A DNA stretch of 64,000 bases, from NCBI GenBank assembly GCA_963769885.1, contig CAVYNH010000004.1, positions 288,001 through 352,000 on the forward strand. Direction: 5' to 3'. Both the position numbers and the translations under genes were made by a program. The notes under the pieces are model-generated. The model ran no database searches and was not told the DNA's origin. It was given only the letters and a program-made list of their open reading frames with translations. Below are positions 5,955 through 54,563 of this stretch, piece by piece; the first letter of the stretch is position 1, and each line of letters starts with the position of its first letter. Origin of the DNA: Methanobacteriota archaeon. Its GTDB lineage: Archaea; Thermoplasmatota; E2; DHVEG-1.

Positions 5955-6134
5955 CTTCCCTCAAATAATAAAGGATGAACACATTAATTAATCTATTCAA
6001 ACGAACAAATTTCTTCTTATAAAAAGGCGAAGAGCTAAACTCTCATCCCTCAATATACTCCAACCTAGTTCCTCGCCCTCCGCTGTCACCCAAACGTTTA
6101 TGAGCCTCTTATCAATGCTCCCTGGGTAAGAGTA

Positions 6135-7685
6135 ATGGATCAGCGATTCGCACTCCTCAGCGTTTTTGATAAAACCAGTATTACCGACCTCGCCAGCGCC
6201 TTCGCCGCCGCCGACATCAGGATCCTCTCCACCGGCGGCACCGCCAAGGCCCTCAAGGCCGCCCGCATCCCCTACACCGAGGTCTCCGACTACACCGGCT
6301 TCCCCGAGATGCTCGACGGCCGCGTCAAAACCCTCCACCCCAAGATCCACGCCGGCATCCTCGCCCAACGACACAACAAAGACCACACCGCCACCCTCAC
6401 CAAACACGAAATCACCCTCATCGACTACGTCGTCTGCAACCTCTACCCCTTCGAAACCACCATCCAAAAACCCCACGTCACCATCGAAGACGCCATCGAG
6501 AACATCGACATCGGCGGCCCCAGCCTCCTTCGCGCCGCCGCCAAGAACTACCCCGGCGTCGTCGTCCTCACCTCACCAGCCCAATACCCAGACGTCATCA
6601 CCGCCCTGAAAACCAAGACCCCCATCACCCTCGAGCAGCGCCAGCAGTACGCCATCGCCGCCTACGCCCACACCGCCCAATACGACACCCTCATCACCAC
6701 CTACCTCCGCACCACATGGGCACCCGACCCTTACCCCACCGACCTCACCCTCACCTTCAGAAAAAAACAAGCCATGCGCTACGGCGAAAACCCACACCAA
6801 CACGCAGCCTTCTACCACACCCTCCCACCACCAACCGAGCCCTGCATCACCACCACCACCCAACTCCACGGCAAAGAACTCTCCTACAACAACATCCTCG
6901 ACAGCAACACCGCCATCGAAACCCTCAAAGAATTCACCGCCCCCACCTGCGTCATCGTCAAACACGCCACCCCCTGCGGCATCGCCACCGCCCTCACCCC
7001 CCTCCAAGCTTGGAAAGACGCGTACGCCACCGACGTCTACAGCCCCTACGGCGGCATCGTCGCCTTCAACCGCCAACTCGACGCCGACACCGCCACCGAA
7101 CTTGGCCAGTACTTCCTCGAAGTCATCATCGCCCCCGACTACACCCCTCAAGCCCAAACCATCCTTGAACAAAAAAAGAACCTCAGACTCCTCACCCTCC
7201 CCGGCCTCGACAAAGAAATCACACGCGGCGGCACCGAATACCGTAGCGTCGTCGGCGGCCTCCTCACCCAAGACCGCGACACCACCTTCACCCCCCCAGA
7301 CACCTGGAAAACCGTCACCACCACACACCCAACACAAGCCCAACTCGACAGCATGGCCTTCGCCGCCCGCTGCGTCAAACACATCAAATCCAACAGCGTC
7401 GTCTTCGTCACCGGCACCCAAACCGTCGGCATCGGCGGCGGACAGACCAGCAGAGTCGACGCCGTCTGGATCGCCACCCACAAAGGCCAAGACCGCATCC
7501 GCGGCAGCACCATGGCCTCCGACGCCTTCTTCCCCTTCAGAGACGCCGTCGACGTCGCCGCCCAAGCCGGCGTCGCCGCCATCCTCCAACCCGGCGGCAG
7601 CATCCGCGACGACGAAGTCATCCAAGCCGCCAACGAACACCACATCCCCATGGTCTTCACCGGCCAACGCTACTTCCGCCACTAA
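6135..7685 (+). CDS. purH: Bifunctional AICAR transformylase / IMP cyclohydrolase
   Basis: SVFDKT, GRVKTLHP, IDIGGP, RYGENPHQ, SDAFFPF, QPGGS motifs and RYFRH C-terminus. Confidence 0.97.
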   Translation: MDQRFALLSVFDKTSITDLASAFAAADIRILSTGGTAKALKAARIPYTEVSDYTGFPEMLDGRVKTLHPKIHAGILAQRHNKDHTATLTKHEITLIDYVVCNLYPFETTIQKPHVTIEDAIENIDIGGPSLLRAAAKNYPGVVVLTSPAQYPDVITALKTKTPITLEQRQQYAIAAYAHTAQYDTLITTYLRTTWAPDPYPTDLTLTFRKKQAMRYGENPHQHAAFYHTLPPPTEPCITTTTQLHGKELSYNNILDSNTAIETLKEFTAPTCVIVKHATPCGIATALTPLQAWKDAYATDVYSPYGGIVAFNRQLDADTATELGQYFLEVIIAPDYTPQAQTILEQKKNLRLLTLPGLDKEITRGGTEYRSVVGGLLTQDRDTTFTPPDTWKTVTTTHPTQAQLDSMAFAARCVKHIKSNSVVFVTGTQTVGIGGGQTSRVDAVWIATHKGQDRIRGSTMASDAFFPFRDAVDVAAQAGVAAILQPGGSIRDDEVIQAANEHHIPMVFTGQRYFRH

Positions 7686-7713
7686 AAACAAAAACCAAAC
7701 AAAACGGACACCC

Positions 7714-9486
7714 ATGCACCTCACCATCAAAGCCCGCGACGGACCCGCCCGCACCGGCATCCTCACCATCCACGACACCACCATCCACACCCCCTCCATC
7801 CTCACCCTCACCCCCACCACCATCCCCAACACCATCCACCTCACCACCATCCCCACCACCCTCTTCTCCCCACACCCCAAACCCACCAGCTACCTCCTCT
7901 ACCCCAACAACCTCCCACTCCCCTTCCAAAAAGAGACACTCACCTCCTCACAAAAAACCCCAGACCTCCACCTCATCCCCCCGACCCCAGAACTCCTCAC
8001 TAACCTCACCACCACCCCCGGCACCTTCTACACCGTCACCAACGCCGCCCAACTCTACCACCACCAAACCGCCTTCGTCGCCTTCATCACCACCCTCCGC
8101 CAGACCCTCGCCCCCGAAAGCCTCCTCTACCTCCCCGCCATCGCCACCCCCACCACCCTCGCCATCCTCACCTACCTCGGCGCCGACCTCACCGACACCA
8201 CCCAAGCCCACCTCGCCGCCCACCACCACACCCTCCTCTTCCCCACCGGCCCCATCCCCCAAACCGACCTCACCGAACTCCCCTGCCACTGCCCAACCTG
8301 CACCACTATCAAAGACCCAACAACCATGACCTGCTCCGACATCCTCACCCACAACATCCACGCCCTCACCACCGAAGCCCAACACATCCGCACCGCCATC
8401 ACCCGCGGCACCCTCCGCGAACACGTCGAAACCCGCGTCCGCGCCGACCCACACGCCACCGCACTCCTCCGACTCCTCGACCACAACCACCCCGCCTACC
8501 TCGAAGAAGCCACCCCCCTCACCAGACGCTACCCCCTCCTCGCCACCACCCGCGAAGCCCTCACCCGCCCCGAAGTCCGCCGCTACCAACACCGCGTCCT
8601 CTACCGCTACCACAAACCACCAACCGCCCACATCCTCCTCCTGCTCCCCTGTGCCGCCCACAAACCATACTCCGAATCCAAAAGCCACACCCTCTTCCGA
8701 GCCGCCCTGCTCGCCAGCCCCAACCCCTGGGCAGTGCACGAACTCATCGTCACCTCCCCCCTCGGCCTCGTCCCTCGCGAACTCGAGATCGTCCCCCCAG
8801 CCTCCTGCTACGACATCGCGGTCACCGGCCACTGGGACGACGACGAGAAGACCATGATCACCCGACTCCTCCGCCACTACCTCGCAGCCAACCGATACGA
8901 CCAGATCATCAGCCACCTCGGCCCCCACCTCCATGCCATTGTCGAAGCCTTGATCCCTGGCGCGACGGTGACCTGCGTAGACATCCCAACCTCGGACGCA
9001 TCACTCGACCGTCTCAAACAGGAGCTCGGTGTCCGCACCGCTCAGTACCCCCGGGTCAGCCCAGCCCAGCATGCCTGCGAAGAAGTCAGCGCCGTCGCCG
9101 CCTACCAGTTCGGCCCAGCCATCGCCGCCGCCCTCATGAAAGACAGCGCCGTCCGCGGTCGCTACCCGTACCGCAAGATCCTCAAGAGCAACAAGCAGCT
9201 CGGCATGATCACCGACCGAGGCCTCATCTCCTTGACGTTTGGCGGTGCGCAGGCCTGCGCCGCCGAATCTGGGTACTCCGTCACCATCGCGGACGACTTC
9301 CGCCTAATCGGCTCCGTGTTCGCTCCCGGCATCATCCAGGCCGACCCAGGAATCCGCATCGGGGACGACGTCTGGGTGAGACAAAACAACATGGTCCGCG
9401 GCGTCGGCGTCGCGACCATGAGCGGACCGGAGATGAACCGCGCACGGCACGGGGAGGCGATACGAATCCGCCATCGCCATACCTGA
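7714..9486 (+). CDS. arcS: Archaeosine synthase subunit alpha (TGT-like plus PUA domain)
   Basis: ARDGPARTG start, CxCxxC Zn site, LLPCAAHKPYSESKSH, TSPLGLVPRELE, C-terminal PUA domain. Confidence 0.9.
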   Translation: MHLTIKARDGPARTGILTIHDTTIHTPSILTLTPTTIPNTIHLTTIPTTLFSPHPKPTSYLLYPNNLPLPFQKETLTSSQKTPDLHLIPPTPELLTNLTTTPGTFYTVTNAAQLYHHQTAFVAFITTLRQTLAPESLLYLPAIATPTTLAILTYLGADLTDTTQAHLAAHHHTLLFPTGPIPQTDLTELPCHCPTCTTIKDPTTMTCSDILTHNIHALTTEAQHIRTAITRGTLREHVETRVRADPHATALLRLLDHNHPAYLEEATPLTRRYPLLATTREALTRPEVRRYQHRVLYRYHKPPTAHILLLLPCAAHKPYSESKSHTLFRAALLASPNPWAVHELIVTSPLGLVPRELEIVPPASCYDIAVTGHWDDDEKTMITRLLRHYLAANRYDQIISHLGPHLHAIVEALIPGATVTCVDIPTSDASLDRLKQELGVRTAQYPRVSPAQHACEEVSAVAAYQFGPAIAAALMKDSAVRGRYPYRKILKSNKQLGMITDRGLISLTFGGAQACAAESGYSVTIADDFRLIGSVFAPGIIQADPGIRIGDDVWVRQNNMVRGVGVATMSGPEMNRARHGEAIRIRHRHT

Positions 9487-9508
9487 GCTAAAAAAAGAAA
9501 ACGGTCCC

Positions 9509-9850
9509 TTATTTTCTTGCAGCGACCGTAATCGTGCCCATGTACCCGCACTGGGGGCAGGTATGAGTAAACGAGGTCGGCTTCTTGGTGCGGACCGAGA
9601 GGGAGAACGTCTTCTTACAGGAAGGGCAACGATACAGATGCACGGCAGAGGCAGGGGCTTTGTCAGTCGGAGACTTCGCAGTCTTCCGCACCCCAAGCAG
9701 CATCCATACAAGCGGGATGAGCAGGACAACGTCGACGAAGAGAACCTGCAGCATCCACCCGTTCTCATTGACCATATCATACATTGCGACGATCAGCGTC
9801 ACCAGACCCAGGGGGATGACGCAAACCGCGATGAGGACGCGTCGGTTCAT
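9509..9850 (-). CDS. Small membrane protein with C-terminal zinc ribbon
   Basis: Two hydrophobic segments, then CPSC...CPQCG; GGAGG SD upstream. Confidence 0.75.
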   Translation of the reverse strand: MNRRVLIAVCVIPLGLVTLIVAMYDMVNENGWMLQVLFVDVVLLIPLVWMLLGVRKTAKSPTDKAPASAVHLYRCPSCKKTFSLSVRTKKPTSFTHTCPQCGYMGTITVAARK

Positions 9851-9854
9851 GAGG

Positions 9855-12834
9855 CTACCTCCTCCGAATAACGAGAAGGCCGAGGAGGAAGATGACGACG
9901 AAGAACACCACCGCGAGGGTGAGGTAAAGAGCATGGTCCTGAAAGACCTCGATCAGGGATGCCTCTTGGCGGCCATGCAGAGGGTCTGTATGGGCAGTGT
10001 ACTCTTGTAGGTTACTGGCACCGTCCCCGTCCGAGTCGATGAGGGCATCCGAGGCGTTGTACGGGTCAAGCCCGTACAACAGTTCCCAGTCATCCGGCAG
10101 CCCGTCGTTGTCGGTGTCGTTGAGATCGAGGGTGATCCAGAACGTCATCTCGGGGCTGCGGGCGGTGTTGTTATAGTAGTCGACGCTGGAGACGCGATAG
10201 ATGTACTTACCGAGGTCGTGGTAGATCTGGGTGATTTGATAGTATCCGGTCGTGTTCTTTTGGAGGATCACGTCAGAGTAGGTGCCATCAGGCGTGGTGA
10301 TGCGGGCTTGGACGCTGCGGATGCCGTAGTTGTCGTGGGTCCCGCAGGTGATCTTCACGGGAAGGCCGGGGAGCTGGACCTGGGGCTCGACTTCGATGAG
10401 GTCCAGGGACGGCGGGGTCTTGTCGATGACGACGGTGAAGTTCCCCGTAGCAGTGGCCTTGTTTTTAAAGTAGGCGGCGTCGGTCGCGGTGATCGTAAAG
10501 CTGTATCTCCCGAGGGCCCAGGTATCCAGCAGGGTGTAGCGATACCTGGTATCGTTGAGGAGGGTCATGTTGGCGGCGAGTTGGGTGTTCTTGGGGGTTT
10601 TGATGGTGATGCTGACGAGGCTGATACCGGAGGCGTCGGTCGCCCTGACGGTGAAGATGGCGGGGAATCCTTTTTCGATGATGCCGGGCTCTTCGAGGAT
10701 GCTGATGACGGGCTTGTTCTTTTCCGCCGGGATGACCACCAGGGGTCGGTCGAGGCGTTTGAGGCGGTTGTTCGTGTCGTTGTAGTCTGGGGTGGAGGCG
10801 TTGGGGTGAATCTCGACGCCGACGTAACCATTCCCCCCTGTATTTCTCGTCGCCGTACTTGACGGGGGACCAGGTGAGGTCGACGATCATGGTCTCTCCC
10901 ACGTCAAGGGAGATGGTCGTGGAGTTCACTTCTCCTGTGTAGAGCACGTTGGGGGGGTCGTGCTGTTCGACGAAGAGGGCGATGGTGTAGTTGACGCCGG
11001 TCTTATGTCCGTTGTTGCGGATGGTGGTGGCGATGACTCCGGCGCCGTACTCGTTGAGGGCTGTGCTCGGCAGGCTGATGTCGACAACGGTGAAGTCGGC
11101 AGCGCCTTGGACGGTGACGGTGGCGGTCTTGTTGTTGTTGGCGGTGTTCGGCTCGGTGTAGTCCGAGCAGCTGATGGTGACGGTGATCTTGTAGGTGCCT
11201 TGGGTGGGGTGCCAGTAGCAGACGAAGCTGGTGTTCTTGTCTTTTGGTAGCACGTTTCCGGTGGAGTTCAAGAGGTAGGTGGAGTTGCATTTGAAGCTGA
11301 TGCGGACGTCGGGGACGGTGGCGTTGGTGGCAGTGGCGTAGGCGGTGATGGTGACGTTGCCTTCCGTGGGGGTGTTAGGGAATCGCAGGTATGTGAGGGC
11401 GATGTCCGGGATGGTGATGTTGAGGGAGTAGTTCTGCCGATTGATGTACCCGGCGTTGTCTATGGCGGTGGCGCGAATGCTCCAGTTGCCTCTGGGGAGG
11501 TTGAGGCGCTGGGTCCATTTGAGGGTATCGAGGGTGGAGAACGTCAGGGTCCGGTTGAAATGGCCGTTGAGGAGGAGGTCGGCGGTGACGGATTTGGCTT
11601 TCGCGACGGTTTTCAGGGTGATGGTGAAGTCTGTATTCGGCAGATAGAAGGTTTGGATGACGGTGGAGGGCTCCAGCCACCAGCCTTCGGGGTTGCTGGT
11701 GGAGTCGATGACGGCGGTGCCGGGGTTTTGGTGGATGGGTTTGGAGAGGTTGGTCCGGGTGCCGTTGTTGTCGTAGGTGTCGAAGTAGACGAGGTAGAAA
11801 CCGCGGCCGGTGACAGCCCAAGTGAGGTCTCCTTTCGCGTTGGTCTGAGAAGCGTAGTCGTTGGCTCTAGTGAACTTATAGGGGATGACGTTGTTTTTTC
11901 CGGCAGCGTATTTGACGACGGTAATAGTGGCGTCTTCAAGGGGCTTACTAGTGAGGCCGAGGGTGTGGAGTGCGGCGGTGAAGTTCACGGTCTTGGTGAG
12001 GTTTCCGGTGCCGGTGGCATTGTAGTAGTAGCGGTAGTGCCAGCTGGTGTTCCACCAGGGGATTTTAACCGTGGTGATGGTGGCGACGAGGGTGGCGGTG
12101 TTGTTGGTTTCGTTGAGTTCGTAGACGGTATGGTCTGGGTCGAGGACGATGGTGACGGTGGTAAGACCGGCGGTGGTCGGGGTCCAGCTGAAGGTGAGGG
12201 CCCAGAGTTGGCCGTGTTGGAGGCCAATGATGGCGGTGGTGTTGATGGTTTTGTCATTGATGCGGCAGTCGGCGTGGATGGTTTCGGTGGTGTTGGCGCC
12301 GGTGTTGGTCGCAGTGGCTTGCAGGGTGATGAGGGAGCCGACGGTGGTGGTGCCGGTGAGGGTGATTGGGGTGGTGAAGGCGAGGTCTGGGGGCGGGGGG
12401 TGGATGGTGATGGTGGCGGTGCGGTAGTTGTTGTGGGGGTTGGGGTCGTTGAGGCCGGTGCGGGCGGTGAAGTTGAGGGTGCGGTTTTGTGGTAGGTTGG
12501 CGGGATGGTGGCTAGTGAATTTGGCGATCCAGTAGAGGGTGAAGGTATGGTGGGTGGTGGTGAGGGTGATGGTGGTGTTGATGCTGGTGGTGTAGGTGCC
12601 GTCGACGAGGAGGCTGACGTTGATCCAGGTATTGTTATTGAGGTTGGGGGGGGTGGTGATGTTGACGGGGAGGGTGAGGTTGGTGCCGACGATGGTATCG
12701 GTGGGGATGGTGAGGGGGTCGATGGAGAGGTCGACTTGGGTGGAGGCGGTGGCGGGGAGGGCGAGGGATGGTAGAATGATGAGGACGGCCAGTACGGTGA
12801 GTATCGTGTGCGTGGTAGAACCAGGGTTTTGCAT
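9855..12834 (-). pseudogene. Large CARDB/Ig-domain surface protein with Ca-binding DxDxDG repeats and a C-terminal TM anchor, +1 frameshift at ~10826
   Basis: The 789-aa ORF ends YRGEW and continues YVGVEIHPNAS in the frame of the 9855-10739 ORF; ELNETNN CARDB motif; DTDNDGLPDDWE; TM helix followed by RRR. Confidence 0.8.
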
Positions 12835-12917
12835 TGTTCTCCTCCCGATGTGCTGGCGTCATATTTGGTTCGTAGTATTTCTATTTTTTGATAAAAATAT
12901 CGGCTTTCGGGTATTTA

Positions 12918-14162: not shown

Positions 14163-14336
14163 GGTGGCGGTTTTTAATTATCTTATATTATATATATTAC
14201 TGTCGATGCCTCGGTGTTTTTATGGTTTACGGAAGGGGGAAGGCCTTTTCTTTTTGAAATCTGGATTTTTTTGTCTGTGGGAAAATAGTCGTTATACGGT
14301 ATGGTGTCTATAAAAAATAGAAAAGATGGGGGTCGC

Positions 14337-15818: not shown

Positions 15819-16103
15819 GGTGGCTTTCCTCCCCATGCCTAGACATGGCACACCTTCTTATTGTTCAATAGTATATAAATTTTCACAATTGAATGTACTT
15901 TGACAGATAGAAAAAAATTTTAACTAATTTGTTTTGACTGGGCTCGGTTTGATACGGTTCACTTGGAAGATAAGAATTTTTCTTGTTTATTTTTCACGGT
16001 TGAATACTGCAAGAAAGTAAAAAAAATTGAGTAAAAGAAATAGCCTCAACAGCGTAAAAATCAAAAAACTAAGATTTTTAACAAATGGAATTCATTTTGA
16101 ATC

Positions 16104-16541: not shown

Positions 16542-16584
16542 CGACTTTTGTAGGACAGACCCCTGGAGTTTAAAAAGATTTCAT

Positions 16585-16627
16585 TAAAAAAATGAGGCTC
16601 CCGGAGCAGTCCAGGCCCCGGAGTCTT
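16585..16627 (-). terminator. Hairpin followed by a U-tract downstream of the CocE gene
   Basis: Minus strand reads GACTCCGGGGC...GCTCCGGGAGCCTCA followed by T7. Confidence 0.45.
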
Positions 16628-16633
16628 CCTATA

Positions 16634-45269: not shown

Positions 45270-45276
45270 CGGGCGG

Positions 45277-45408
45277 ATGCGGAAGCGTTTCGAGGAGGCC
45301 TGGCGGGATCCGGAGAGGAAGGCGAAGCTGCTGTTCTGGATCTGGATCCTCTCCCTAGTCATGACCGTAGTCGGCTACGCGATCATCTTTTTCACTTTGC
45401 TCCAGTAA
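45277..45408 (+). CDS. 43-aa single-TM protein after atpD
   Basis: MRKRFEEAWRDPERKAKLLFWIWILSLVMTVVGYAIIFFTLLQ; starts 7 bp after the atpD stop. Confidence 0.7.
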   Translation: MRKRFEEAWRDPERKAKLLFWIWILSLVMTVVGYAIIFFTLLQ

Positions 45409-45454: not shown

Positions 45455-47953
45455 TTAGGCTTGTTGTCCGGACATAATCCGCATGCCGTAGAAGCTGCGG
45501 TAGACGAAGGTCATGCTGACGGCCAGGAACACGGCGAAGAGGACGTAGTTGAGGTTCGGATACTGGTTGGAGAGGCTCACGGCAAGCGAGACGGCCAGGA
45601 GCCCGAACAGGGTGGTGAACTTGATGATCGGGTTCATGGCGACCGATGAGGTGTCCTTGAAGGGGTCGCCGACCGTGTCGCCGATGACGGTCGCCGCGTG
45701 CAGGTCCGTGCCTTTCTCCTTGAGGTCGACCTCGACGATCTTCTTGGCGTTGTCCCAGGCGCCACCCGCGTTTGCCATGAAGATGGCCTGGAAGAGTCCG
45801 AAAACGGCGATGCTGATCAGGTAGCCTATAAAGAAGAATGGCTCGAAGAAGGCGAAGGCGAGGGTGGCGAAGAAGACGGCGATGAAGATGTTGAACATCC
45901 CTTTCTGGGCGTACTTGGTGCAGATGGCAACGACTTTCTTGCTGTCCTCGACGGATGCTCTTTCCACGCCTTCGAGCTTGATGTTCTTTTTAATGAACTC
46001 GACGGCCCGGTAAGCACCGGTGCCCACAGCCTGGGTCGATGCACCCGTGAACCAGTAAATCATGGCGCCACCGGTGATGAGGCCGAGGAAGAACGGAGGG
46101 TGCAGGAGGCTGAGGTTCGCAATGTTCGTCTGCAGGCCGTTCGTCAGCAGGACGATGATGGAGAAAATCATGGTAGTAGCCCCGACGACTGCAGTACCGA
46201 TAAGGACGGGTTTGGCAGAGGCCTTGAAGGTGTTACCAGCGCCATCTCCTTCTTCGAGGAGGAGTTTGCCGTGCTCGAAATCTGGCTCGAAGCCGTAATC
46301 GCGTTTGATCTCTTCTTTGATGCCTGGCTGCTGCTCAATCAGTGAGAGTTCGTAGATGGATTGGGCGTTATCCGCCACCGGTCCGTAGCTGTCAACCGCG
46401 ATGGTGACAGGGCCCATGCCGAGGAACCCGAAGGCGACGAGCCCGAAGGCAAAGACCGCGTAGATTAAGGGATTGATTGAGAGAGCGGCCAACCCACCTA
46501 CATTTTCACCAAGAGCGTTAACATGAGCACCGTAGGTGCTGACCCCGAATGCGATGCCCATGAGTAGGACGATGGTTAACCCAAGCCAGTAGGCGCTGAA
46601 GTTGCCGTCGACGAATCCGGAGAGGATGCCAAGAGACGGTCCGCTTTTGTCGCTAGTGACGATTTCTTTGACGTGACGGGATTTGGTGGAGGTGAAGACT
46701 TTGACGAACTCGGGGATGATAGCACCGGCCATGGTGCCGCAGGAGATCACGATGCTGAGTTTCCACCAGAGGGTTGGGTCGGAGAGGTTGCCGAGGAGGA
46801 AGTAGGAGGCGATGAAGGTGAAGGCGACAGAGACGAAGCTGGTGAGCCAGACGAGGGTGGTGAGAGGGGATTCGAAGTTCATGGTCTTGGCGTTGCGGTA
46901 GCGGGCGAGGGTGAGGGCGTCGTTGATGAGGTAGGAGAACATGCTGGAGAAAATCATGAGGATGCGCATCAGGAAGATCCAGACGAGGAGGAGGATCTTG
47001 ATGGCGGGATCCGCGACCGCGACGATGATGAAGGTGATGAGGGCGACGCCGGTGACGCCGTAGGTCTCGAAGCCGTCCGCGGTGGGGCCGACCGAGTCTC
47101 CTGCGTTGTCGCCGGTGCAGTCTGCGATGACGCCGGGGTTGCGGGCGTCGTCTTCTTTGATTTTGAAGACGATCTTCATGAGGTCGGAGCCGATGTCTGC
47201 GATTTTGGTGAAGATGCCGCCGGCGATTCTGAGGGCGGCGGCGCCGAGGGATTCGCCGATGGCGAAGCCGACGAAGCAGGGGCCGGCGTAGTCGCCGGGG
47301 ATGAAGAGCAGGATCGCGAGCATCATGAAGAGTTCGACGCTGATGAGGAACATGCCGATGCTGATGCCTGCTTTGAGGGGGATGCGGTTGACTTGGACGG
47401 CTTTGCCGGTGAGGCTGGAGAAGGCGCTGCGGCTGTTGGCGAGGGTGTTGAGTCGGATGCCGAACCAGGCGACGCTGTAGCTGCCTGCGATGCCGATGAG
47501 GCTGAAGATGAGGATGATGGCGATTTGGAAGGGGGCGTAGTTGGAGATGCCGAAGTAGATGACGATGACGATGCCGATGAAGAGTTCGAGGAGGAGGAGG
47601 AATTTGCCTTGGGTGATGAGGTAGGTTTTGCAGGTTTCGTAGATGAGTTCGGAGATGTCGCGCATGGATTTGTGGACGGGGAGGCGTTTGAGGGTGAGGT
47701 AGTTGTAGAGTCCGAAGGCGAGTCCGATGAGGCAGGCGACGAGGCCGATCATGAGGAGGGCTCTGGCGTTGATGCCGAAGTAGGTTTGGGTGCCCAGGTC
47801 AGGGAGTTTGAGGCTGGCTTCGCCGCTGGGTTCGGCGGCGAGGATGCTGGGGGCGGTTGTGAGGAAGAGGATGCTGAGTAGGAGCCCGATGGCGAGGAGT
47901 CGGTGGACTTGGTGTCTGTTTTTCTGTGGGGATCTTCTCATGGTGTGGACCAT
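45455..47953 (-). CDS. hppA: Membrane-bound H+-translocating pyrophosphatase, long divergent type
   Basis: KIADIGSDLMK, EDDARNPGVIADCTGDNAGD, DSYGPVADNA, GNTFK, GGAWDNAKK, GDTVGDPFKD. Confidence 0.95.
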   Translation of the reverse strand: MVHTMRRSPQKNRHQVHRLLAIGLLLSILFLTTAPSILAAEPSGEASLKLPDLGTQTYFGINARALLMIGLVACLIGLAFGLYNYLTLKRLPVHKSMRDISELIYETCKTYLITQGKFLLLLELFIGIVIVIYFGISNYAPFQIAIILIFSLIGIAGSYSVAWFGIRLNTLANSRSAFSSLTGKAVQVNRIPLKAGISIGMFLISVELFMMLAILLFIPGDYAGPCFVGFAIGESLGAAALRIAGGIFTKIADIGSDLMKIVFKIKEDDARNPGVIADCTGDNAGDSVGPTADGFETYGVTGVALITFIIVAVADPAIKILLLVWIFLMRILMIFSSMFSYLINDALTLARYRNAKTMNFESPLTTLVWLTSFVSVAFTFIASYFLLGNLSDPTLWWKLSIVISCGTMAGAIIPEFVKVFTSTKSRHVKEIVTSDKSGPSLGILSGFVDGNFSAYWLGLTIVLLMGIAFGVSTYGAHVNALGENVGGLAALSINPLIYAVFAFGLVAFGFLGMGPVTIAVDSYGPVADNAQSIYELSLIEQQPGIKEEIKRDYGFEPDFEHGKLLLEEGDGAGNTFKASAKPVLIGTAVVGATTMIFSIIVLLTNGLQTNIANLSLLHPPFFLGLITGGAMIYWFTGASTQAVGTGAYRAVEFIKKNIKLEGVERASVEDSKKVVAICTKYAQKGMFNIFIAVFFATLAFAFFEPFFFIGYLISIAVFGLFQAIFMANAGGAWDNAKKIVEVDLKEKGTDLHAATVIGDTVGDPFKDTSSVAMNPIIKFTTLFGLLAVSLAVSLSNQYPNLNYVLFAVFLAVSMTFVYRSFYGMRIMSGQQA

Positions 47954-48054
47954 CTCCTTTTTGTTTACCCTGAATCTGGTGTTTCTATTTAAAGGAACGT
48001 CTTGCGTGGGTTGTAGAATATTGTCTCCCAGGTATGAAGGATGGAAAATGGGGT

Positions 48055-49299
48055 TTAGGGAGCCGTGGTTCCGATGCTGGCTTTCTTTCTTTTCACATCG
48101 ACGTAGCGTGCGACCATGAGGAGGCTCATGGCGACGGCGCTGATAATCATGAATATTAGGACGCCGAGGCCGCCGTAGCGGTCGGAGATGCCGGCGATGG
48201 CGGGGATGCCGATGAACATGCCTGCGCTGATGACGATGCTGTAGACGGCCATGGTGACGCCTCGCATCGACTCCTTCGCCTCGTCCGCAAGCGAGGACAG
48301 CGCGGAGGGCCCGAAGGCGAGGGCCATGAACCCGAACAGTGCGAGGAGCGGCCAGTAGGCGATGATGTTGGTCTTGATGGCGCCCTCGGTCATGGGGCTG
48401 GCGGTGAGGTAGCCGATGCCCAGGACGGTCATGATGCCGACGAAGCCGATGGTGCCGACGACCATGATGGGCAGCCGGCCGTACTTATCGGACAACCTGC
48501 CGTAGAAGTACTGGGTGAGGATGAGGAAGGCACCGCCGCCGGCGATGAGCCCAGCGAGGTATATAGGGGGGATGGTGAGGACGCCTTGGGAGGTGGAGAC
48601 GGTGAGGAAGGTGAGGGCGGCGCCGATGATCATGAAGACGATGAACCAGGGGAGGGTGACGAGGAGGATGGACCGCTGGCGCAGGACCGCAATGATGTTG
48701 CGGAACTCGATCTTCTTGGCGAGGATGTCGTGTTTCTTCGGCTCGGTGATGTTGACGGCGGAGTAGATGACGCCGACCATGGCCATGATGCCGGCGACAG
48801 CGAAGGTCATACCAAGGCTGCCTTTGAAGAATTCGAGGAAGAGGGCGCCGACCGCGAAGCCGAAGATCCAGCCGAGGAGGTTGAAGGCGTCGAAGGCGCC
48901 CATCTCGCGGCCGCGGCGGTCCTCGGGGGCGTAGTCGGTGAGCAACGCAAGCGATGAGACGAGGATGGAGCCGGCGGCGACGCCGTGGCCGGCGTTGAGG
49001 AGGAAGACGGCGTAGAGGTTGGTGGTGAGGGAGAGGGCGAAGAGGAGGAGGCCGGCGCTGAGGAGGCCGAGGAGGAGGATGATCTTGCGGCCGTAGCGGT
49101 CGACGATGGTGCCGATGAACAGGACGGTGCCCATCTCGAAGAGGGGTGAGGCGGCGGCGACGATGCCGTAGCCCAGGTACGTGGTGGTGATGCCCAGGTA
49201 TATGGGCAGGGTTGCGAGCATGATTCCGAAGCTGGCGCGGATGAAGAAGGTGGAGATGTAGAGGGAGGAGAGGAGTCTGAGGGGCGGGTGTTGGGGCAT
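48055..49299 (-). CDS. MFS transporter
   Basis: About 12 TM helices; motif A (DRYGRK and GRLSDKYGR). Confidence 0.9.
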   Translation of the reverse strand: MPQHPPLRLLSSLYISTFFIRASFGIMLATLPIYLGITTTYLGYGIVAAASPLFEMGTVLFIGTIVDRYGRKIILLLGLLSAGLLLFALSLTTNLYAVFLLNAGHGVAAGSILVSSLALLTDYAPEDRRGREMGAFDAFNLLGWIFGFAVGALFLEFFKGSLGMTFAVAGIMAMVGVIYSAVNITEPKKHDILAKKIEFRNIIAVLRQRSILLVTLPWFIVFMIIGAALTFLTVSTSQGVLTIPPIYLAGLIAGGGAFLILTQYFYGRLSDKYGRLPIMVVGTIGFVGIMTVLGIGYLTASPMTEGAIKTNIIAYWPLLALFGFMALAFGPSALSSLADEAKESMRGVTMAVYSIVISAGMFIGIPAIAGISDRYGGLGVLIFMIISAVAMSLLMVARYVDVKRKKASIGTTAP

Positions 49300-49566
49300 C
49301 CTAGTAGTGTGTATTTGGGTGGCGTTTAAAAAGGGATTCTGTGTGGGGGGGGGGGGTGTTTCTCCTGTTTCTTTCGTTTGCTGTGGTTTTTCCTTCACGG
49401 GATGCGAAGCGTTGGGTGTTTTAAATATGGGTTGTTGTTTTTGGGTGGTTTTGTGTCTTTTTGTTGCATTGGTTAGGGGTGTGGTTTTTAAGCAAAGGCT
49501 TTTAAATGTTTATTCGCAATATGCCGGCTCAGTCCTTGTGGTTGGAACGAAGAGCACGATTCCCCG

Positions 49567-51552
49567 ATGCAGAATGATAACGGTGCCAAAGGTGGTTTGC
49601 TTTATCGGATTCGCTGTAAGCTGATTGGCCGGCCGCGGAACATCAGGGATCCTCTTTTGTTTCAGACGATTTCTCTGATTGCGCTGTTGTCGTGGATCGG
49701 GCTCGGGGCGGATGGGTTGTCCTCGTCGTCGTACGGGCCGGAGGCGGCGTTCAATGAGATCCTCCACCATCCATATATCGCCGTTTTCCTGGCGATCGCG
49801 ACCGCGGCGACGGTATTCATCATCTCGTACACCTATTCGAAGATCATCGAGGAGTTCCCGCATGGCGGCGGCGGCTACATCGTCGCGACGCACACGCTTG
49901 GGCGGGTGCCCGGGGTGGTCTCCGGGTCCGCGTTACTCGTGGACTACGTGCTGACAATCGCGGTGTCCATCTCAGCATGCGGGGACGCAATCTTCAGCTT
50001 CATCCCCCCGGAATATCAGGTATATAAGCTTTCGGTGAAACTTGGTTTAATCCTGTTTCTCGTCGTCTTGAATCTGCGGGGAGTGAAGGAGTCGGTGAAG
50101 GTGCTGGCGCCAATCTTCCTGTTGTTTCTCGTGATGCATGTGTTGCTGCTTGGCTGGGGGCTGGCGAGTAACGTGCCGCATATCGGGTCGCATGCAGCGA
50201 GTGTGACCACGAGCCTACGGTCAGATGTCGCCGCGATCGGGCTTGTCGGTGTGTTCGCGATTTTCCTACGAGCCTTTTCCTTAGGTGCGGGGACGTACAC
50301 CGGAATCGAGGCGGTGTCGAACGGTCTGCAGATCATGCGTCAACCGCGGGTGCAGACTGGGAAGCGGACGATGATGTACATGGCGATTTCGCTGTCGGCG
50401 GTCGCCGGCGGCATTCTGCTATGTTACTTCTTGACCGATATCCAACCAGTGAAGAATCAGACGTTGAACGCGGTGCTGGCGAACACGTTGTTCAGCGGCT
50501 GGCCGGCCGGGTACTGGATTGCGGCTCTAATCATCTTCTCGGAGGCGCTGCTGTTGATTGTAGCGTCGCAAACCGGGTTTATCGACGGCCCACGGGTCAT
50601 GGCGAACATGGCCGTAGACTCCTGGTTCCCGAAGAAGTTCGCGGCGCTGTCAGAGCGACTGACGATCCAGAACGGCGTGCTGGTCATGGGTATCTCCGCG
50701 CTACTAGTAGTTGGGTTAAGTCTCGGAAAAGTATCAATCCTGGTGATTATGTACGCGATCAATGTGTTCGTCACGTTCTCGCTGTCGCAGCTGGGAATGG
50801 CGCGGTTCACGCTCAAGAATCGGATGAAGAACCCGCATTGGCGGCGGCGGTTCACAATCTTCGCTGTGGGGTTTGCCGTGTGCTTCACGATTTTGATGGT
50901 GACGGTCCTTGAGAAGTTCAGGGAGGGCGGCTATGTGACTTTGGTGGTCACAGCAGTCATCATCCTGATCTGTTATACGATTTACCGGCATTACCAGAAA
51001 GTGAGAACCGCGATGAAGAAGTTCGACGAGGTCCTGATGCTTTCAAATATTCATCTTGCGGACAAGCCGAACACCAAGGCGATTGACCCGACGAAGCGGA
51101 CTGCGGTGCTGCTCGTCCGGCGGTACGACGGCTTCAGCGTCAACACCTTCCTACAGCTGATCCGCAACTTCCCAGGGCTGTACAGCAACATCATCTTCAC
51201 CGCGGTCGCGGAGGTCGACTCCGGGTCGTTCAAGGGCCGCGAGGAGCTGGAGTCGCTGGAGAAGTCGGTGCGCGGTGACATGATGAAGTATGTGAAGCTG
51301 GCGCGGGCGCTGGGGTTCGCCGCGGACTACCGCATGGACATCGGTACGGATGTGGTCGCGACCGCGTCCTCGCTGTGCGAGTCGATCGCGCATGAGTTCC
51401 CGATCGTCACGTTCTTCACTGGAAAACTGTGCTTTAGACATGAGACGATCTTCCATAAGCTGTTGCATAACGAGACGGCGTTGGCGGTGCAGCGGCGGCT
51501 GCAGTGGGATGGGCTACCGGTCGTTATCATCCCCGTCCCCGTCGAAATCTAA
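49567..51552 (+). CDS. APC-superfamily permease, KimA/YdaO-like (possible K+ uptake)
   Basis: GADGLSSSSYGPE, GGGGY, DYVLT, NLRGVKES, TGIEAVSNG; soluble C-terminal domain. Confidence 0.8.
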   Translation: MQNDNGAKGGLLYRIRCKLIGRPRNIRDPLLFQTISLIALLSWIGLGADGLSSSSYGPEAAFNEILHHPYIAVFLAIATAATVFIISYTYSKIIEEFPHGGGGYIVATHTLGRVPGVVSGSALLVDYVLTIAVSISACGDAIFSFIPPEYQVYKLSVKLGLILFLVVLNLRGVKESVKVLAPIFLLFLVMHVLLLGWGLASNVPHIGSHAASVTTSLRSDVAAIGLVGVFAIFLRAFSLGAGTYTGIEAVSNGLQIMRQPRVQTGKRTMMYMAISLSAVAGGILLCYFLTDIQPVKNQTLNAVLANTLFSGWPAGYWIAALIIFSEALLLIVASQTGFIDGPRVMANMAVDSWFPKKFAALSERLTIQNGVLVMGISALLVVGLSLGKVSILVIMYAINVFVTFSLSQLGMARFTLKNRMKNPHWRRRFTIFAVGFAVCFTILMVTVLEKFREGGYVTLVVTAVIILICYTIYRHYQKVRTAMKKFDEVLMLSNIHLADKPNTKAIDPTKRTAVLLVRRYDGFSVNTFLQLIRNFPGLYSNIIFTAVAEVDSGSFKGREELESLEKSVRGDMMKYVKLARALGFAADYRMDIGTDVVATASSLCESIAHEFPIVTFFTGKLCFRHETIFHKLLHNETALAVQRRLQWDGLPVVIIPVPVEI

Positions 51553-51560
51553 TCGAGTTT

Positions 51561-52184
51561 TTAGGGAATCCTGGCGAAGTCCTGCAGGGTCCGGGCGCGC
51601 AGGGTCTTGTTCGTCTTCTTCTGGTTGCCCAGCGTATCAAAGGGTTTGTCGCCGTAGTCGTGGCCGGGGTAGACGATGAGGTAGTCCGGGAGTGGGAGTA
51701 TTTTATGCTGGAGGGTATCGTACATCTGCTCCAGGCTGCCGTCGCCGAGGTCGGTTCGGCCGCAGTCGCCGATGAAGAGCGTGTCGCCCGTGATGAGCGC
51801 CTGGTCGTCGACGAGGAGGCAGATGCCGCCCGGGGTATGCCCGGGGGTGCTGATGATGGTGATCGAGATGCTGCCCACAGGGAGGGTGCTGCCGTCGGAG
51901 ACGACGAGGTCGGGGTGGACTCTGAGGTAGCGGCCGTCGGTTTGGCTGGCGACAACCTTGGCCGAGGGGTGCGCCTTCTTGGCTGTGGGGAGGGCAGCGG
52001 TGTGGTCCCCGTGGTAGTGAGTGATAATAATATAGAGAAGGGCGAGGCGTTTGTCCGCTATTTGTTTGAGGGCGGCTGTTGCGTCGGTGCCGGGGTCGAC
52101 GAGGGCCGCCTGCATGTCGCTTGTGATGAGGTAGCTGAAGTTATCGACGCCGACGCGGATCTGTTCGATGGTCACTCTCGTCAC
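51561..52184 (-). CDS. Metallo-beta-lactamase fold hydrolase (glyoxalase II-like)
   Basis: THYHGDH, TPGHT, GDTLF, PGHDY motifs. Confidence 0.9.
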   Translation of the reverse strand: MTRVTIEQIRVGVDNFSYLITSDMQAALVDPGTDATAALKQIADKRLALLYIIITHYHGDHTAALPTAKKAHPSAKVVASQTDGRYLRVHPDLVVSDGSTLPVGSISITIISTPGHTPGGICLLVDDQALITGDTLFIGDCGRTDLGDGSLEQMYDTLQHKILPLPDYLIVYPGHDYGDKPFDTLGNQKKTNKTLRARTLQDFARIP

Positions 52185-52215
52185 CCGACGATGATGGGAG
52201 AATGGCCTGGGTTCT

Positions 52216-53163
52216 TCAAGCTTTGTATGCGCTCTGGGGCATCTCCGAGAGCCGAAGGACCCCCTGGAGGTGGTGGTGTCTGCGCAGGATCTTGACCTGG
52301 ATGGTCTCGCCGCTCTTGTGTTTCCAGAGGGTGCTGCGGAGGTCCTCGATGCCGTTGACGTCGTGGTCCTCGGCCTGCAGGATGATGTCGCCGGGCTTCA
52401 GGCCTGCTTTGTCGGCGGGGCTGTCCTGGGTGATCTGGACGATCAGCGCACCTTTGTCGGAGCAGAGACGGTAGTAGGAGGCGAGCGTCGGGGTCATGTC
52501 GATGCCGATGATGCCGAGCCATGGTCGGACGACGCGGCCGTTCTGGATGAGTTCGTTGGCGATGTCGCGGACGGTGTTGGAGGGGATGGCGAAGCCGATG
52601 CCGTTGGCGTAGGGGATGATGGCATTGTTGACGCCGATGATGCGACCGTCGCTGTCGATGAGGGGGCCGCCGCTGTTGCCGGGGTTGATGGCGGCGTCCG
52701 TCTGAATCATGTTCTCCAGGATGCCCTGCTGGGTGGGGATGTTGCGGCGCAGCGCGGAGACGACGCCGACGGTGACCGAGGGTCCGCCGACGAGGCCGAG
52801 GGAGTGGCCGATGGCGATGGCGGTCTGGCCGAGGCGCAGGTTGTCGGAGTCGCCGAACTCGCCGCTGTAGAAGTTCTCGCCGTCAATCTTCAGGACCGCG
52901 ATGTCGGTGCTGGGGTCCGTCGCCACAACGCGGGCGTCGAAGCGGTCGCCGTCGAGGAGGTAGACTTCGGCGGTGCGGGTGTCGGTGACGACGTGGCTGT
53001 TCGTAACCAGATAGCCGTCAGGGTTGAGGATGATGCCGGAGCCGATGCCGGTGGCCTCGAAGGTGGTGAAGAGGTCGTATTTGAGGAGTAGTTTGGTGCT
53101 GATGCTGACGATGCTTGGGCTGACTTTCTCGACGGCGCGGATGATGCGCTCTTCATCGGACAT
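52216..53163 (-). CDS. HtrA/DegP-type serine protease with one PDZ domain
   Basis: TNSHV, DIAVL, TDAAINPGNSGGPL triad motifs; PDZ domain. Confidence 0.92.
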   Translation of the reverse strand: MSDEERIIRAVEKVSPSIVSISTKLLLKYDLFTTFEATGIGSGIILNPDGYLVTNSHVVTDTRTAEVYLLDGDRFDARVVATDPSTDIAVLKIDGENFYSGEFGDSDNLRLGQTAIAIGHSLGLVGGPSVTVGVVSALRRNIPTQQGILENMIQTDAAINPGNSGGPLIDSDGRIIGVNNAIIPYANGIGFAIPSNTVRDIANELIQNGRVVRPWLGIIGIDMTPTLASYYRLCSDKGALIVQITQDSPADKAGLKPGDIILQAEDHDVNGIEDLRSTLWKHKSGETIQVKILRRHHHLQGVLRLSEMPQSAYKA

Positions 53164-53209
53164 GGTTCGTGGTCTCCCCCTTAGGGTAGGTATGCTCACT
53201 AATCTTATG

Positions 53210-53223
53210 TTAACAATTGTTAA
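53210..53223. promoter_or_regulatory. Perfect 14-bp palindrome upstream of the HtrA gene
   Basis: TTAACAATTGTTAA. Confidence 0.5.
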
Positions 53224-53284
53224 TTAAGGTTGCGGTTCCAGCAAGACAAAAGACACCTTACGCCAGATCCCTCCACCCGAGAGC

Positions 53285-54499
53285 CTAGAAACGGCCCAGC
53301 CGGTCCCGCACGTACCCCGTGAGCGTATGCCGCGCCACGCTCCACCCGACATCCCGGACCCGCACCGACCCCATCAACAACGCAATCCCATGCGCCTTCA
53401 GCACGGGATCCCGCTCGACGATCCGCCACAGCCGCTCCGTCGGCACCCGCCAAAACCGTGACGCCCGATAATACCGCCGGTTATCGTCCCCAAAATCCTC
53501 CATCCACCACCGCTGATACACCGAGAGCGCCGTGGGGGAGGAATCCCTCGTCTTCATCGCCCGGACAATCGCCTTGGCCGCATGCTCCCCCGACGACATC
53601 GCCTCATAGATGCCCTCGCCGGTGAGCGGATTCGCCAGCCCCCCCGCATCCCCACACAACAAAAAGCAACTCCCGTACGTCCGCCGCTGCGGCAGCGTCG
53701 GAAACACCCCGCCCTTCGGCGAAAGAACAGAAACCATCTCTGGGACGAGCCCACGGCTCTTGAGAAGATCGATGAACTGGGAGTACAGCTGTCTGAGGTT
53801 CTTCTTCGGATGCCCACCGAGCGCATGGTAGAACTCGCTGACGCCGACGTTCACATGCTCCGCCTTCGGGAAGACCCAGCCGTAGCCCGCTATCCCCAAG
53901 ACGCCGAAACACACGTGGACGCAGCGCTCCTCCCCGTACACCTGGTCCATCACCGACCGAGGCACCGGGTACTCCTCCATGACGCAGGCGCCGATATGCC
54001 GCCGGCTCAGAGGATAGCCCAGGTCCCGAAGGATTCGGCTGCCCATCCCCGTCGCCACGATGACATAGGGCGCAGGGAGAAACGAGCCGTCCGACAGCGT
54101 CACCTGCGCCCGATGCCCAGAAACGGTCAGTCGCGTCACCGCAACCCCGGTCCTCAGCTCCGCCCCGCTGTCCGCCGCCAGCCCGACGAGCGCAACGTCG
54201 AAGGGCACACGCCGGATCATCGCGAGCATCGGCGCCGAATGCTCCAGGTTGGTCTGGCTTCGCAGCGACGAGGAATACACGCACATCCGCGAGGAGTACG
54301 ACTCCACCAGCCCCTTCTTCCCCACGTACGGAAATCGGCGTAGGACCCGGGCAGGCAGACCGCCGCCACAGGGCTTGTCCCGAGGGAACGAATGCTTATC
54401 AACGAGCAACACGGAGACGCCGTTCTCCGCGAGCACCTTCGCCGCCGTGGACCCCGCAGGGCCCGCCCCGACGACGATCACCTCAGGTTTGGCAACCAC
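53285..54499 (-). CDS. Geranylgeranyl reductase family FAD oxidoreductase
   Basis: GAGPAGS, PRDKPCGGG, GYGWVFPK, GDAGG...PLTGEGI motifs. Confidence 0.9.
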   Translation of the reverse strand: MVAKPEVIVVGAGPAGSTAAKVLAENGVSVLLVDKHSFPRDKPCGGGLPARVLRRFPYVGKKGLVESYSSRMCVYSSSLRSQTNLEHSAPMLAMIRRVPFDVALVGLAADSGAELRTGVAVTRLTVSGHRAQVTLSDGSFLPAPYVIVATGMGSRILRDLGYPLSRRHIGACVMEEYPVPRSVMDQVYGEERCVHVCFGVLGIAGYGWVFPKAEHVNVGVSEFYHALGGHPKKNLRQLYSQFIDLLKSRGLVPEMVSVLSPKGGVFPTLPQRRTYGSCFLLCGDAGGLANPLTGEGIYEAMSSGEHAAKAIVRAMKTRDSSPTALSVYQRWWMEDFGDDNRRYYRASRFWRVPTERLWRIVERDPVLKAHGIALLMGSVRVRDVGWSVARHTLTGYVRDRLGRF

Positions 54500-54563
54500 G
54501 CTTCCCTGCTCCAAGGTAACGAACAGCAAGGAGTTATTTAAAACATTTTGTCCTGCATGCCTA

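Follow-up and report, generated by a model that had tools for sequence, protein, structure and literature searches.

The 64,000-nucleotide stretch of DNA analysed here (the window; G000:C4:288001-352000) belongs to a metagenome-assembled genome, G000, of an archaeon that its AtpA relatives place in an uncultured Thermoplasmatota lineage, and carries a saw-tooth of strand skew. About 150 fixed intergenic reset sites divide the genome, and in each interval the + strand starts out almost purely C/A and grades into almost pure G/T. At each side of a reset the strand running 5' to 3' outward is C/A-rich. The majority of resets are in gaps that bear promoters, and one coincides with the cdc6 replication origin, which carries sites resembling the origin recognition box (ORB). 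The pattern is the footprint of a one-directional DNA process and is both real and extreme: all weakly constrained DNA of the genome is under a strong substitution pressure that is directed towards GC, differs between the strands and varies with position. It covers about 39% of the DNA (398 tracts with an absolute skew above 0.6, whose cores total 822 kb), alters amino-acid usage and tracks a 20-point rise in GC content within one family. To our knowledge it is among the strongest local strand asymmetries in a cellular chromosome and is comparable with that of animal mitochondria.

Saw-tooth skew and intergenic resets

Skew is given for the + strand, negative values denoting C/A-rich and positive values G/T-rich DNA; a change from G/T to C/A is written K->M and the opposite change M->K. 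The window profile was computed at four-fold degenerate sites in bins of 60 sites, with the strands of about 35 genes set by Pfam. In raw 1-kb windows the GC skew reached -0.55 at 8-9 kb, where C makes up 51% of the bases, and +0.60 at 13-14 kb. The AT skew of these windows was opposite in sign to the GC skew, and the axis is therefore C/A versus G/T. At four-fold sites between 6.3 and 8.5 kb (purH/ArcS), 3 G were counted versus about 378 C (skew -0.96 to -1.00), and saturated bins held 0 G among 52-56 G+C sites. From there the skew crosses zero at 9.5 kb and climbs to +0.86 to +1.00 at 13.0-14.1 kb (+1.00 at 13.3-13.5 kb). Between 6.1 and 54.5 kb, 45% of the four-fold sites lie at a local absolute skew above 0.6, and 15% of those have a G/T-rich coding strand. 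A preliminary description of the window, made by eye, had proposed a saw-tooth grading from C/A to G/T; both measures confirm it far above chance.

The skew also changes within single genes. It moves from +0.39 to +0.96 in the H+-PPase gene, from -0.74 to -0.13 in AtpB and from -0.92 to +0.32 in the antiporter gene at 27960-29777. The hydrogenase operon, described earlier as shifting along one transcript, indeed passes from -0.92 to +0.64 on one strand over 28-34.4 kb. Among the 217 genes of at least 1.5 kb in the genome, the half-to-half change in skew had a standard deviation of 0.30 versus 0.09 after permutation. Changes larger than 0.4 were rises along the + strand in 49 of 54 genes and falls in 5 (p = 4e-10), and for changes above 0.6 the counts were 19 versus 0. 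The falls therefore lie between genes and the saw-tooth is genuine. Tract edges (0.6 to 0.2) are about equally sharp at both ends (242 versus 220 bp), and K->M and M->K crossings have mean profiles that nearly mirror each other; the asymmetry is therefore visible only in the direct flips and, decisively, in the within-gene slopes. The same skew is present in the intergenic gaps of the tracts (GC skew -0.35 in C/A and +0.33 in G/T tracts versus 0.02 in neutral regions), which together with the within-gene changes upholds the earlier view that ordinary codon preference is not the explanation.

Genome-wide, 153 crossings from G/T to C/A and 151 from C/A to G/T were found. The G/T-to-C/A crossings have a median spacing of 11.8 kb (interquartile range 8.4-15.3 kb), in line with the 10-20 kb estimated by eye. 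Skew autocorrelation was -0.25 at 5-6 kb and +0.07 at 13-14 kb; the negative lobe, which gene direction itself lacks, remained after gene direction had been regressed out. A replichore-scale trend was sought across the genome and none was found, as expected from the earlier statement that the pattern is unlike two-replichore skew. The close K->M flips that were classified number 43, all between genes: 30 at divergent junctions, 12 at tandem ones and 1 at a convergent one; 6 of the M->K flips lie inside genes. At 42 of the 43 K->M junctions one or both adjoining genes start by the flip and point away from it. K->M zones have a lower GC content and contain less coding DNA. Around start codons the fine-scale profile had no crisp onset at the transcription start.

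For the genome-wide comparison with gene direction, genes were called from the three-base periodicity of G+C alone, a measure that is symmetric to G/C exchange and hence blind to skew. This caller found every Pfam-verified gene of the window on the right strand. Greedy longest-ORF (open reading frame) calling was dropped, as it chose shadow ORFs over MetE/MtrH and atpD. These shadow ORFs lie opposite the real genes at 22219-23397 (+, 392 aa; MetE/MtrH) and 44613-45362 (-, 249 aa; atpD). Long shadow ORFs occur because extreme skew generates them, and length-based gene calling is misled.

Across 939 genes the coding-strand four-fold GC skew had a mean of -0.33, a standard deviation of 0.53 and a range of -1 to +1, and that of adjacent genes was correlated at +0.63 for co-directional and -0.44 for opposite pairs. 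In a regression of + strand skew, gene direction explained only 23.5% of the variance (R2 = 0.235), which answers the objection that the coding strand might account for everything; the + strand skew of the neighbours gave an R2 of 0.558, and the two predictors combined gave 0.646. Singleton genes with opposite genes on both sides (152) tracked the strand polarity of their neighbours (r = +0.38; sign agreement in 46 of 62). Strongly C/A-coding genes numbered 379 and strongly G/T-coding genes 76, and 18% of the four-fold sites in tract cores had the opposite ("anti") polarity. Nine of the ten strongest wrong-polarity genes genome-wide were confirmed by Pfam on the called strand, namely those for UvrB, Rad50, Mre11, a Mur ligase, a radical-SAM enzyme, MCM, a DAO oxidoreductase, an M28 peptidase and a class II aminoacyl-tRNA synthetase (AspRS-like). 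Gene direction thus matters, yet it does not fix the pattern. The earlier claim that the skew overrides gene direction stands in part: the skew is partly independent of it, but 82-85% of strongly skewed DNA has a C/A-rich coding strand.

A candidate replication origin lies at G000:C6:261742-261914, just upstream of the gene pair orc1/cdc6-nucS; it consists of an AT-rich stretch with a TTCSAGTGGAAA ORB-like site on either side. Genome-wide, TTCSAGTGGAAA has only two exact copies, both at cdc6. At this site the skew changes from G/T over cdc6-nucS (sense) to C/A over Cdc48 and a PRC-barrel gene, two - strand genes whose direction it opposes, the keto skew going from +0.34 to negative values. As elsewhere, it fades within 3-5 kb. 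The polarity of the origin reset is that of all other resets. The ORB motif was absent from the other resets, and its one-mismatch matches genome-wide (23) were as many as those of a reversed-pattern control (22). Yeast origins have an A/C-rich leading strand and hence the same polarity (PMC3459929), and Ori3 of Haloferax volcanii lies at a local maximum of the third-position cumulative GC skew (PMC12999951), which matches the polarity seen here.

Tracts and resets of the window

The assembly comprises 2.09 Mb in 7 contigs with no N and a completeness of 92%. Contig joins, named in the preliminary description as a possible source of the switch points, are absent from the window, which is interior to a 392-kb contig and contains zero N. 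Elsewhere in the assembly, at G000:C1:1-19446, the first 9.7 kb of the contig are followed directly by their inverted copy (positions 1-9682 versus 9767-19446, 98.9% identity), which resembles a fold-back assembly artefact or a large palindrome. The features of the window are as follows (positions in the window; strand; description).

1-4600; G/T tract (+ strand), four-fold skew +0.42 to +0.67
4600-6134; reset 1 (G/T to C/A), K->M zone 4600-5900, bins 0.00, -0.23, -0.67, -0.96
6135-9486; +; C/A tract with purH and ArcS (Pfam AICARFT_IMPCHas; DUF5591/TGT/PUA), C/A-rich coding strand
9100-10300; gradual C/A-to-G/T crossing at a convergent gene junction, M->K zone, bins -0.60, -0.02, +0.25, +0.57
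10465-14162; -; G/T tract (+ strand) with CARDB and LEA_2 (Pfam), +0.57 to +1.00, peak at the LEA 5' end
14163-14336; partial reset, +0.92 to +0.21 with the sign kept, intergenic DNA still G/T-rich
18780-19538; +; OB-fold gene, G/T-rich coding strand like its - strand neighbours, four-fold skew +0.27 to +0.38
21372-21951; reset 2, sharp C/A onset at about 21.65-21.75 kb, bins -0.22 to -0.83, tract edge 21651
21952-24319; -; C/A tract (+ strand) with MetE-core, MtrH and MtrA (Pfam Meth_synt_2, MtrH, MtrA), against gene direction
27173-29777; +; 5' part of the membrane-bound hydrogenase/Mrp operon (Pfam Oxidored_q2, Proton_antipo_M), C/A-rich
29780-34982; +; distal hydrogenase genes (Pfam), G/T-rich coding strand against gene direction, +0.21 to +0.64
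34983-37178; reset 3 (G/T to C/A), K->M zone 34800-36000
37179-45269; +; A-type ATP synthase operon, atpI to atpD (Pfam), C/A peak at atpC/atpA
45455-53199; G/T tract with H+-PPase (-), MFS (-), amino-acid permease (+), MBL (-) and HtrA (-) genes (Pfam)
53164-53284; reset 4 (G/T to C/A), flip within about 60-100 bp, K->M zone 52800-53600
53285-54616; -; FAD-dependent oxidoreductase (Pfam FAD_binding_3, DAO), G/T-rich coding strand against gene direction, + strand skew -0.07 to -0.52
54900-64000; low-GC segment, 30-43% GC, no skew, with ferredoxin, aldehyde:ferredoxin oxidoreductase and GH57 genes

In order, the genes with Pfam-set strands are purH and ArcS (+), those for surface or secreted proteins with CARDB, LEA_2, PKD and PepX (-) and the OB-fold gene (+, weak match) in the first part of the window. 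The middle holds a response regulator, PterinBD, MetE-core, MtrH, MtrA and a methyltransferase (-), followed by a PQQ beta-propeller gene and the hydrogenase/Mrp operon (+). The last part contains the PQQ/PKD gene and the A-type ATPase operon (+), H+-PPase and MFS (-), the amino-acid permease (+) and MBL, HtrA and the FAD oxidoreductase (-). The OB-fold assignment comes from a weak Pfam tRNA_anti-codon match (24.4 bits, under the 27-bit cut-off).

The leftmost G/T tract begins 4.6 kb upstream of the window, in the 3' part of a + strand ribosomal-protein cluster, and C4:283.4-288 kb shows +0.3 to +0.9 in + strand genes. At reset 1 the sharp C/A onset lies in the divergent purH promoter region (5955-6134), where a TATA-like AT-rich stretch is followed by a C/A-rich leader. 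The purH/ArcS tract holds -0.96 to -1.00 and weakens from 8.8 kb to -0.74 and -0.60. The abrupt reset reported at about 14.2 kb proved to be a drop without a change of sign.

Reset 2 bears out the sharp C/A onset noted at about 21.6 kb. It follows the MetE stop, precedes the response-regulator gene and covers the small PterinBD gene (21636-21962, -; Pfam PterinBD-DUF4346). MetE, on the - strand at 21.8-22.7 kb, has a + strand skew of -0.83 to -0.96, and the tract weakens rightwards through -0.96, -0.85, -0.45, -0.42, -0.38 and -0.11. The genes at 21636-24986 (-), PterinBD-DUF4346, MetE-core (Meth_synt_2), MtrH, MtrA and a small methyltransferase, resemble a corrinoid/pterin methyl-transfer module.

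Along 27173-29777 the skew runs from -0.67 to -0.92 and then to -0.17 and +0.32, with the sign crossing inside the antiporter gene (M->K zone 28000-29600). ARAGORN predicted an 85-nt tRNA-Gly(TCC) at 32776-32860, inside the hydrogenase large-subunit gene; no Rfam family was found in the window, and the candidate was rejected as a probable false positive. The reset placed earlier at about 35.0 kb is present, but the insertion of a PQQ beta-propeller/PKD gene with low skew and lower GC (35088-36692, 1.6 kb; Pfam) divides it in two. The ATP synthase operon covers -0.4 to -0.96 (atpC/atpA -0.93 to -0.96), followed by -0.24, -0.13 and +0.07, and is close to zero within atpB/atpD. In the next G/T tract the amino-acid permease gene (+, against gene direction) has +0.41 to +0.54 and stands between - strand genes at +0.6 to +0.9, with MBL/HtrA at +0.61 to +0.70.

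The reset recorded earlier at about 53.2 kb was recovered as reset 4, which ranks among the 27 strongest four-fold-site flips of the genome. Exactly at the flip, an AT-rich promoter element between HtrA and the FAD oxidoreductase holds TTAACAATTGTTAA (53210-53223), a perfect palindrome of 14 bp. The C/A richness ascribed to 53.2-54.4 kb is there but is not extreme (only -0.07 to -0.52 at 53.3-54.4 kb). The low-GC island lacks the pattern, as had been noticed: 55-64 kb is free of skew. Its part at 55223-59370 (35-42% GC, equal to the family norm) may be a recent acquisition from a relative of low GC content or may have been spared by the skew process.

Coding strands are G/T-rich in MetE, MtrH, the distal hydrogenase genes, the permease, the OB-fold gene and the FAD oxidoreductase, and C/A-rich in purH, ArcS, the atp genes and LEA. 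The contrast drawn earlier between MetE and purH is therefore seen at four-fold sites with Pfam-set strands. Amino-acid composition likewise agrees with the reported Thr/His/Pro richness of ArcS (Thr 12.9, His 5.9, Pro 8.5%), AtpC (Thr 10.2, His 6.3%) and LEA (Thr 17.6%) and with the Val/Gly richness of MetE (Val 15.7, Gly 8.4, Thr 2.0%).

Substitution pressure and candidate causes

On the C/A strand the four-fold composition was C.81, A.08, G.07 and T.05, as compared with G.38 and C.38 in neutral genes, and the purine:pyrimidine ratio was about 15:85. Codon positions 1 and 2 and the amino acids are dragged along (C/A-coding versus G/T-coding genes: Thr 9.0/4.8%, His 3.4/1.9%, Val 5.4/10.2%). 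The root-mean-square keto skew grows with local GC content, from.057 below 40% GC to.26 at 60-65%, and the GC content of family members is mostly 29-42% versus 55% in G000. Given the purine:pyrimidine shift and the rise in GC, deamination transitions (C->T, A->G) of an exposed strand therefore cannot suffice. A deamination gradient on single-stranded DNA of the mitochondrial type was rejected on these grounds, as transitions alone give neither the ratio of about 15:85 nor the GC rise. The exposure of single-stranded DNA, one of the causes offered in the preliminary description, is thus disfavoured in its simple form, since GC-ward and purine-to-pyrimidine changes are required.

Orthologues in the independently assembled congener G001 (about 78% protein identity; 47 orthologues) had a correlated coding-strand skew (r = 0.59) at about 60% of the amplitude, anti-polarity genes included; synonymous sites between the two genomes are saturated. 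The two 3'-most of six distal hydrogenase orthologues (33637-34641 and 32492-33667) have +0.43 and +0.47 here and +0.51 and +0.33 in G001, and the other four have +0.42 to +0.60 here and about zero in G001 (-0.09 to +0.05). Among 40 relatives sampled, the kilobase keto skew was raised in G001, G014, G030, G016, G015 and G005, the rest being at the baseline of about 0.05, as were about 80 other archaeal loci. The closest AtpA relative in the genome collection (76% identity, L001) showed no skew. An intact nucS gene is present in G000; it was found in 7 of 7 genomes with raised skew and 16 of 34 others, counts that ignore phylogeny and genome incompleteness. Neither MutS nor a Y-family polymerase was found in G000 or its family, and gene content gave no discriminator of the skew trait. 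A small RNase HI/RVT_3-like gene lies at 16104-16541 (-) in the window; the RNase_H domain was found in 6 of the 41 genomes searched (G000 and 5 of 40 relatives) and has no link to the trait.

The PQQ/PKD gene that splits reset 3 is missing between the orthologous operons of G001. Its core (35304-36595, 1.29 kb) is identical to the copy at G000:C7:293473-294885, and all 30 differences lie at the two edges, a distribution that indicates a recent gene conversion. The family has about 15 paralogues with lower GC and weak skew, of which 9 of 15 lie at G/T-to-C/A resets versus a baseline of 13.7% (a post hoc comparison).

The sequence by itself does not decide between replication initiation, recombination/repair and transcription as the cause. 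As the driver of the skew we tentatively favour a process in which strand exchange or synthesis proceeds outward from promoters and the origin and its products are filtered by EndoMS/NucS, an explanation we hold to be quite possible though not yet probable. Strand exchange or repair/replicative synthesis would start repeatedly at opened sites (promoters, the origin) and run outward for about 2-6 kb, so that on each side a nascent or invading strand of fixed polarity (outward 5' to 3') would be paired with an old strand. EndoMS is known to cleave G/T, G/G and T/T mismatches (PMC6159521). As the sole recognisable mismatch system of the genome, EndoMS/NucS would cut these and leave A/C, C/C and A/A, so that an A or C placed in the outward strand would survive and a G or T placed there would be eliminated. 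Step by step, C and A would accumulate on the outward strand and G and T on its partner, an effect fading with distance and raising GC, and genes pointing mostly away from resets would usually come to have a C/A-rich coding strand. A NucS filter would therefore give the right axis, polarity and distance decay and, if conversion-like, saturation. The match between the amino/keto axis of the skew and the known substrate range of EndoMS/NucS suggests such a role, and the 1.29-kb conversion tract in the paralogue at reset 3 may be a trace of recombination at resets.

Several observations weigh against this proposal. NucS, present in many skew-free relatives, is clearly insufficient, although it may be necessary, and its association with the skew takes no account of phylogeny or genome incompleteness. 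The preference for C over A is unexplained by a mismatch filter alone. The motif search at switch points suggested by the preliminary description failed to yield a reset-specific motif: k-mer enrichment gave only TATA-like words, none significant after multiple-test correction. Averaging over all tandem promoter gaps gave no mirror-image tract upstream. Tracts are sometimes stronger far from the presumed reset, with +0.6 to +0.9 at C4:283-288 kb versus +0.5 nearer to it. Finally, the strong tie to promoters and gene direction equally fits a transcription-linked process. The earlier idea of a process radiating from fixed sites thus holds in that the resets are discrete and conserved, but this tie is stronger than had been implied.

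A transcription-phase mutation regime as in unicellular fungi, in which the coding strand is C(/A)-rich at the start of a unit and G(/T)-rich at its end and is reset at the next promoter, is the main rival, a possible though rather doubtful cause. Sign and shape are as in fungi, where four-fold sites, promoters and amino acids are likewise affected (PMC3315797). Coding-strand skew is -0.49 in 5' halves versus -0.32 in 3' halves (p = 1e-12), its mean in long co-directional runs goes from -0.5 to about 0, and it falls at tandem gaps of at least 120 bp and rises at operon-internal junctions. The hydrogenase, MTase-MtrA-MtrH-MetE and ribosomal-protein clusters as well as the MCM and UvrB runs go from C/A to G/T, and the predominance of C/A-rich coding strands in skewed DNA fits too. 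Genes of the wrong polarity would then belong to the 3' portions of long units or be covered by antisense or read-through transcription that dominates there. Nevertheless, G-rich-coding genes are barely enriched at run ends (44% versus 38.5%), singleton genes follow the strand polarity of their neighbours, and the strength of the skew is unlike expected expression, the ribosomal-protein cluster being mostly neutral and purH/ArcS saturated. The permease and OB-fold genes are G/T-rich from their 5' ends, likewise mre11 more than rad50, and Cdc48 beside the origin has a G/T-rich coding strand over most of its length, strongly near the 5' end; for such genes transcription phase therefore requires dominant antisense transcription. 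Dispersed replication from about 150 ORB-independent origins firing at comparable frequency, with a C/A-rich leading strand and a rise that reflects a fork-polarity gradient as in human N-domains, seems to us unlikely. It would account for the saw-tooth, its reset spacing, the absence of a replichore-scale trend and a polarity equal to that of the ORB/cdc6 origin, yeast origins (PMC3459929) and H. volcanii Ori3 (PMC12999951); proportionality of skew to fork polarity is established for N-domains (PMC3320577), and origin-independent replication is known in archaea (PMC5333045, PMC11409957). It would, however, need two novelties at once, a leading/lagging asymmetry of very large size and a density of origins without reported precedent in archaea, and both the restriction of the ORB motif to cdc6, with one-mismatch matches at control level, and the tie of the resets to promoter-bearing gaps speak against it.

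Selection rather than mutation, for example for particular codons, for mRNA composition or for fewer R-loops at 5' ends, is largely refuted and in our view very improbable. A C-rich 5' mRNA would disfavour R-loops, and the mean coding-strand bias is negative; against this, intergenic DNA is equally skewed, gradients ignore gene boundaries, amino-acid composition is dragged along, and the tract DNA of opposite coding polarity lies in conserved housekeeping genes. An artefactual origin, whether from errors of assembly or polishing, from a chimeric bin or from mosaic DNA gained by horizontal transfer, is refuted for practical purposes and hardly conceivable. The genome is metagenome-assembled and one contig starts with the 9.7-kb fold-back duplicate, but the window lies inside an N-free contig, its proteins keep strong Pfam matches, and the effect is concentrated at four-fold sites. 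Furthermore, orthologues of the congener share the polarity, and weaker versions occur in other family members.

The resets are readable from sequence and conserved between species and thus map about 150 candidate sites, in an uncultured archaeon, at which DNA may open, recombine or initiate replication. The NucS link suggests a testable cause for GC drift, GRINS-type skews, codon usage and proteome composition in organisms that repair with NucS. Taken at its widest, the proposal of NucS-filtered outward exchange would have about 150 ORB-independent start sites, mostly promoters plus the origin, and the blind spot of NucS (A/C, C/C, A/A) produce strand-polar biased conversion, which would have raised the GC content of the lineage from about 35% to 55% and recast its proteome, with the same logic applying to GRINS in NucS-dependent Streptomyces; this extended form is speculative, and we have limited confidence in it.

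Comparison with known systems

In a search of the literature we found no description of such a pattern in Thermoplasmatota or other archaea. A 2026 survey, which like the present analysis treats third-position and non-coding skews as the mutational component, reported archaea to be largely without strand-specific mutational skews (Paravel et al. 2026, PMC12999951), and G000 is a strong counter-example at the kilobase scale. Bacterial two-replichore skew, with a single sign change each at origin and terminus and a G/T-rich leading strand, differs in having neither the roughly 150 sign changes of each kind nor the polarity seen here at the origin, and it has the long-range trend that is absent here. 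We know of no replication-associated skew whose amplitude comes near that described here.

In unicellular fungi the coding strand is C-biased towards the 5' and G-biased towards the 3' end, and four-fold sites, promoters and amino-acid usage are affected as in G000 (PMC3315797). Here, however, the unit is a multi-gene block of about 5 kb and not the gene, the amplitude saturates (0 G at four-fold sites), GC and AT skews are coupled, and the organism is an archaeon. Moreover, a gene's own direction does not set the polarity, about 18% of tract DNA running against it. Yeast origins (PMC3459929) and human N-domains (PMC3320577) share the abrupt jumps at fixed sites with gradual change between them; at yeast origins the outward 5' to 3' strand is C/A-rich, and a jump of this kind is also found at the ORB/cdc6 origin of this genome. 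They differ from the present case in that resets here are spaced by about 12 kb in a 2-Mb archaeal chromosome, carry no origin motif at the other sites and fade in 3-5 kb. GRINS show intense correlated GC and TA skews (mean absolute skew above 0.15), strongest at third codon positions, together with a Gly/Val versus Pro/Thr/His shift, abrupt changes and a link to gene conversion (PMC8256042), and they are commonest in Streptomyces, which also relies on NucS (PMC11109965). They are defined as duplicated regions longer than 500 bp with more than 80% identity, whereas the skew of G000 lies in unique sequence and forms an ordered saw-tooth with intergenic resets; self-BLAST gave 196 high-scoring pairs of at least 400 bp in the whole genome versus 822 kb of tract cores, so the duplication that defines GRINS is lacking. 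The pattern mixes features of the fungal skew, of yeast origins and N-domains and of GRINS, and it fails a defining feature of each.

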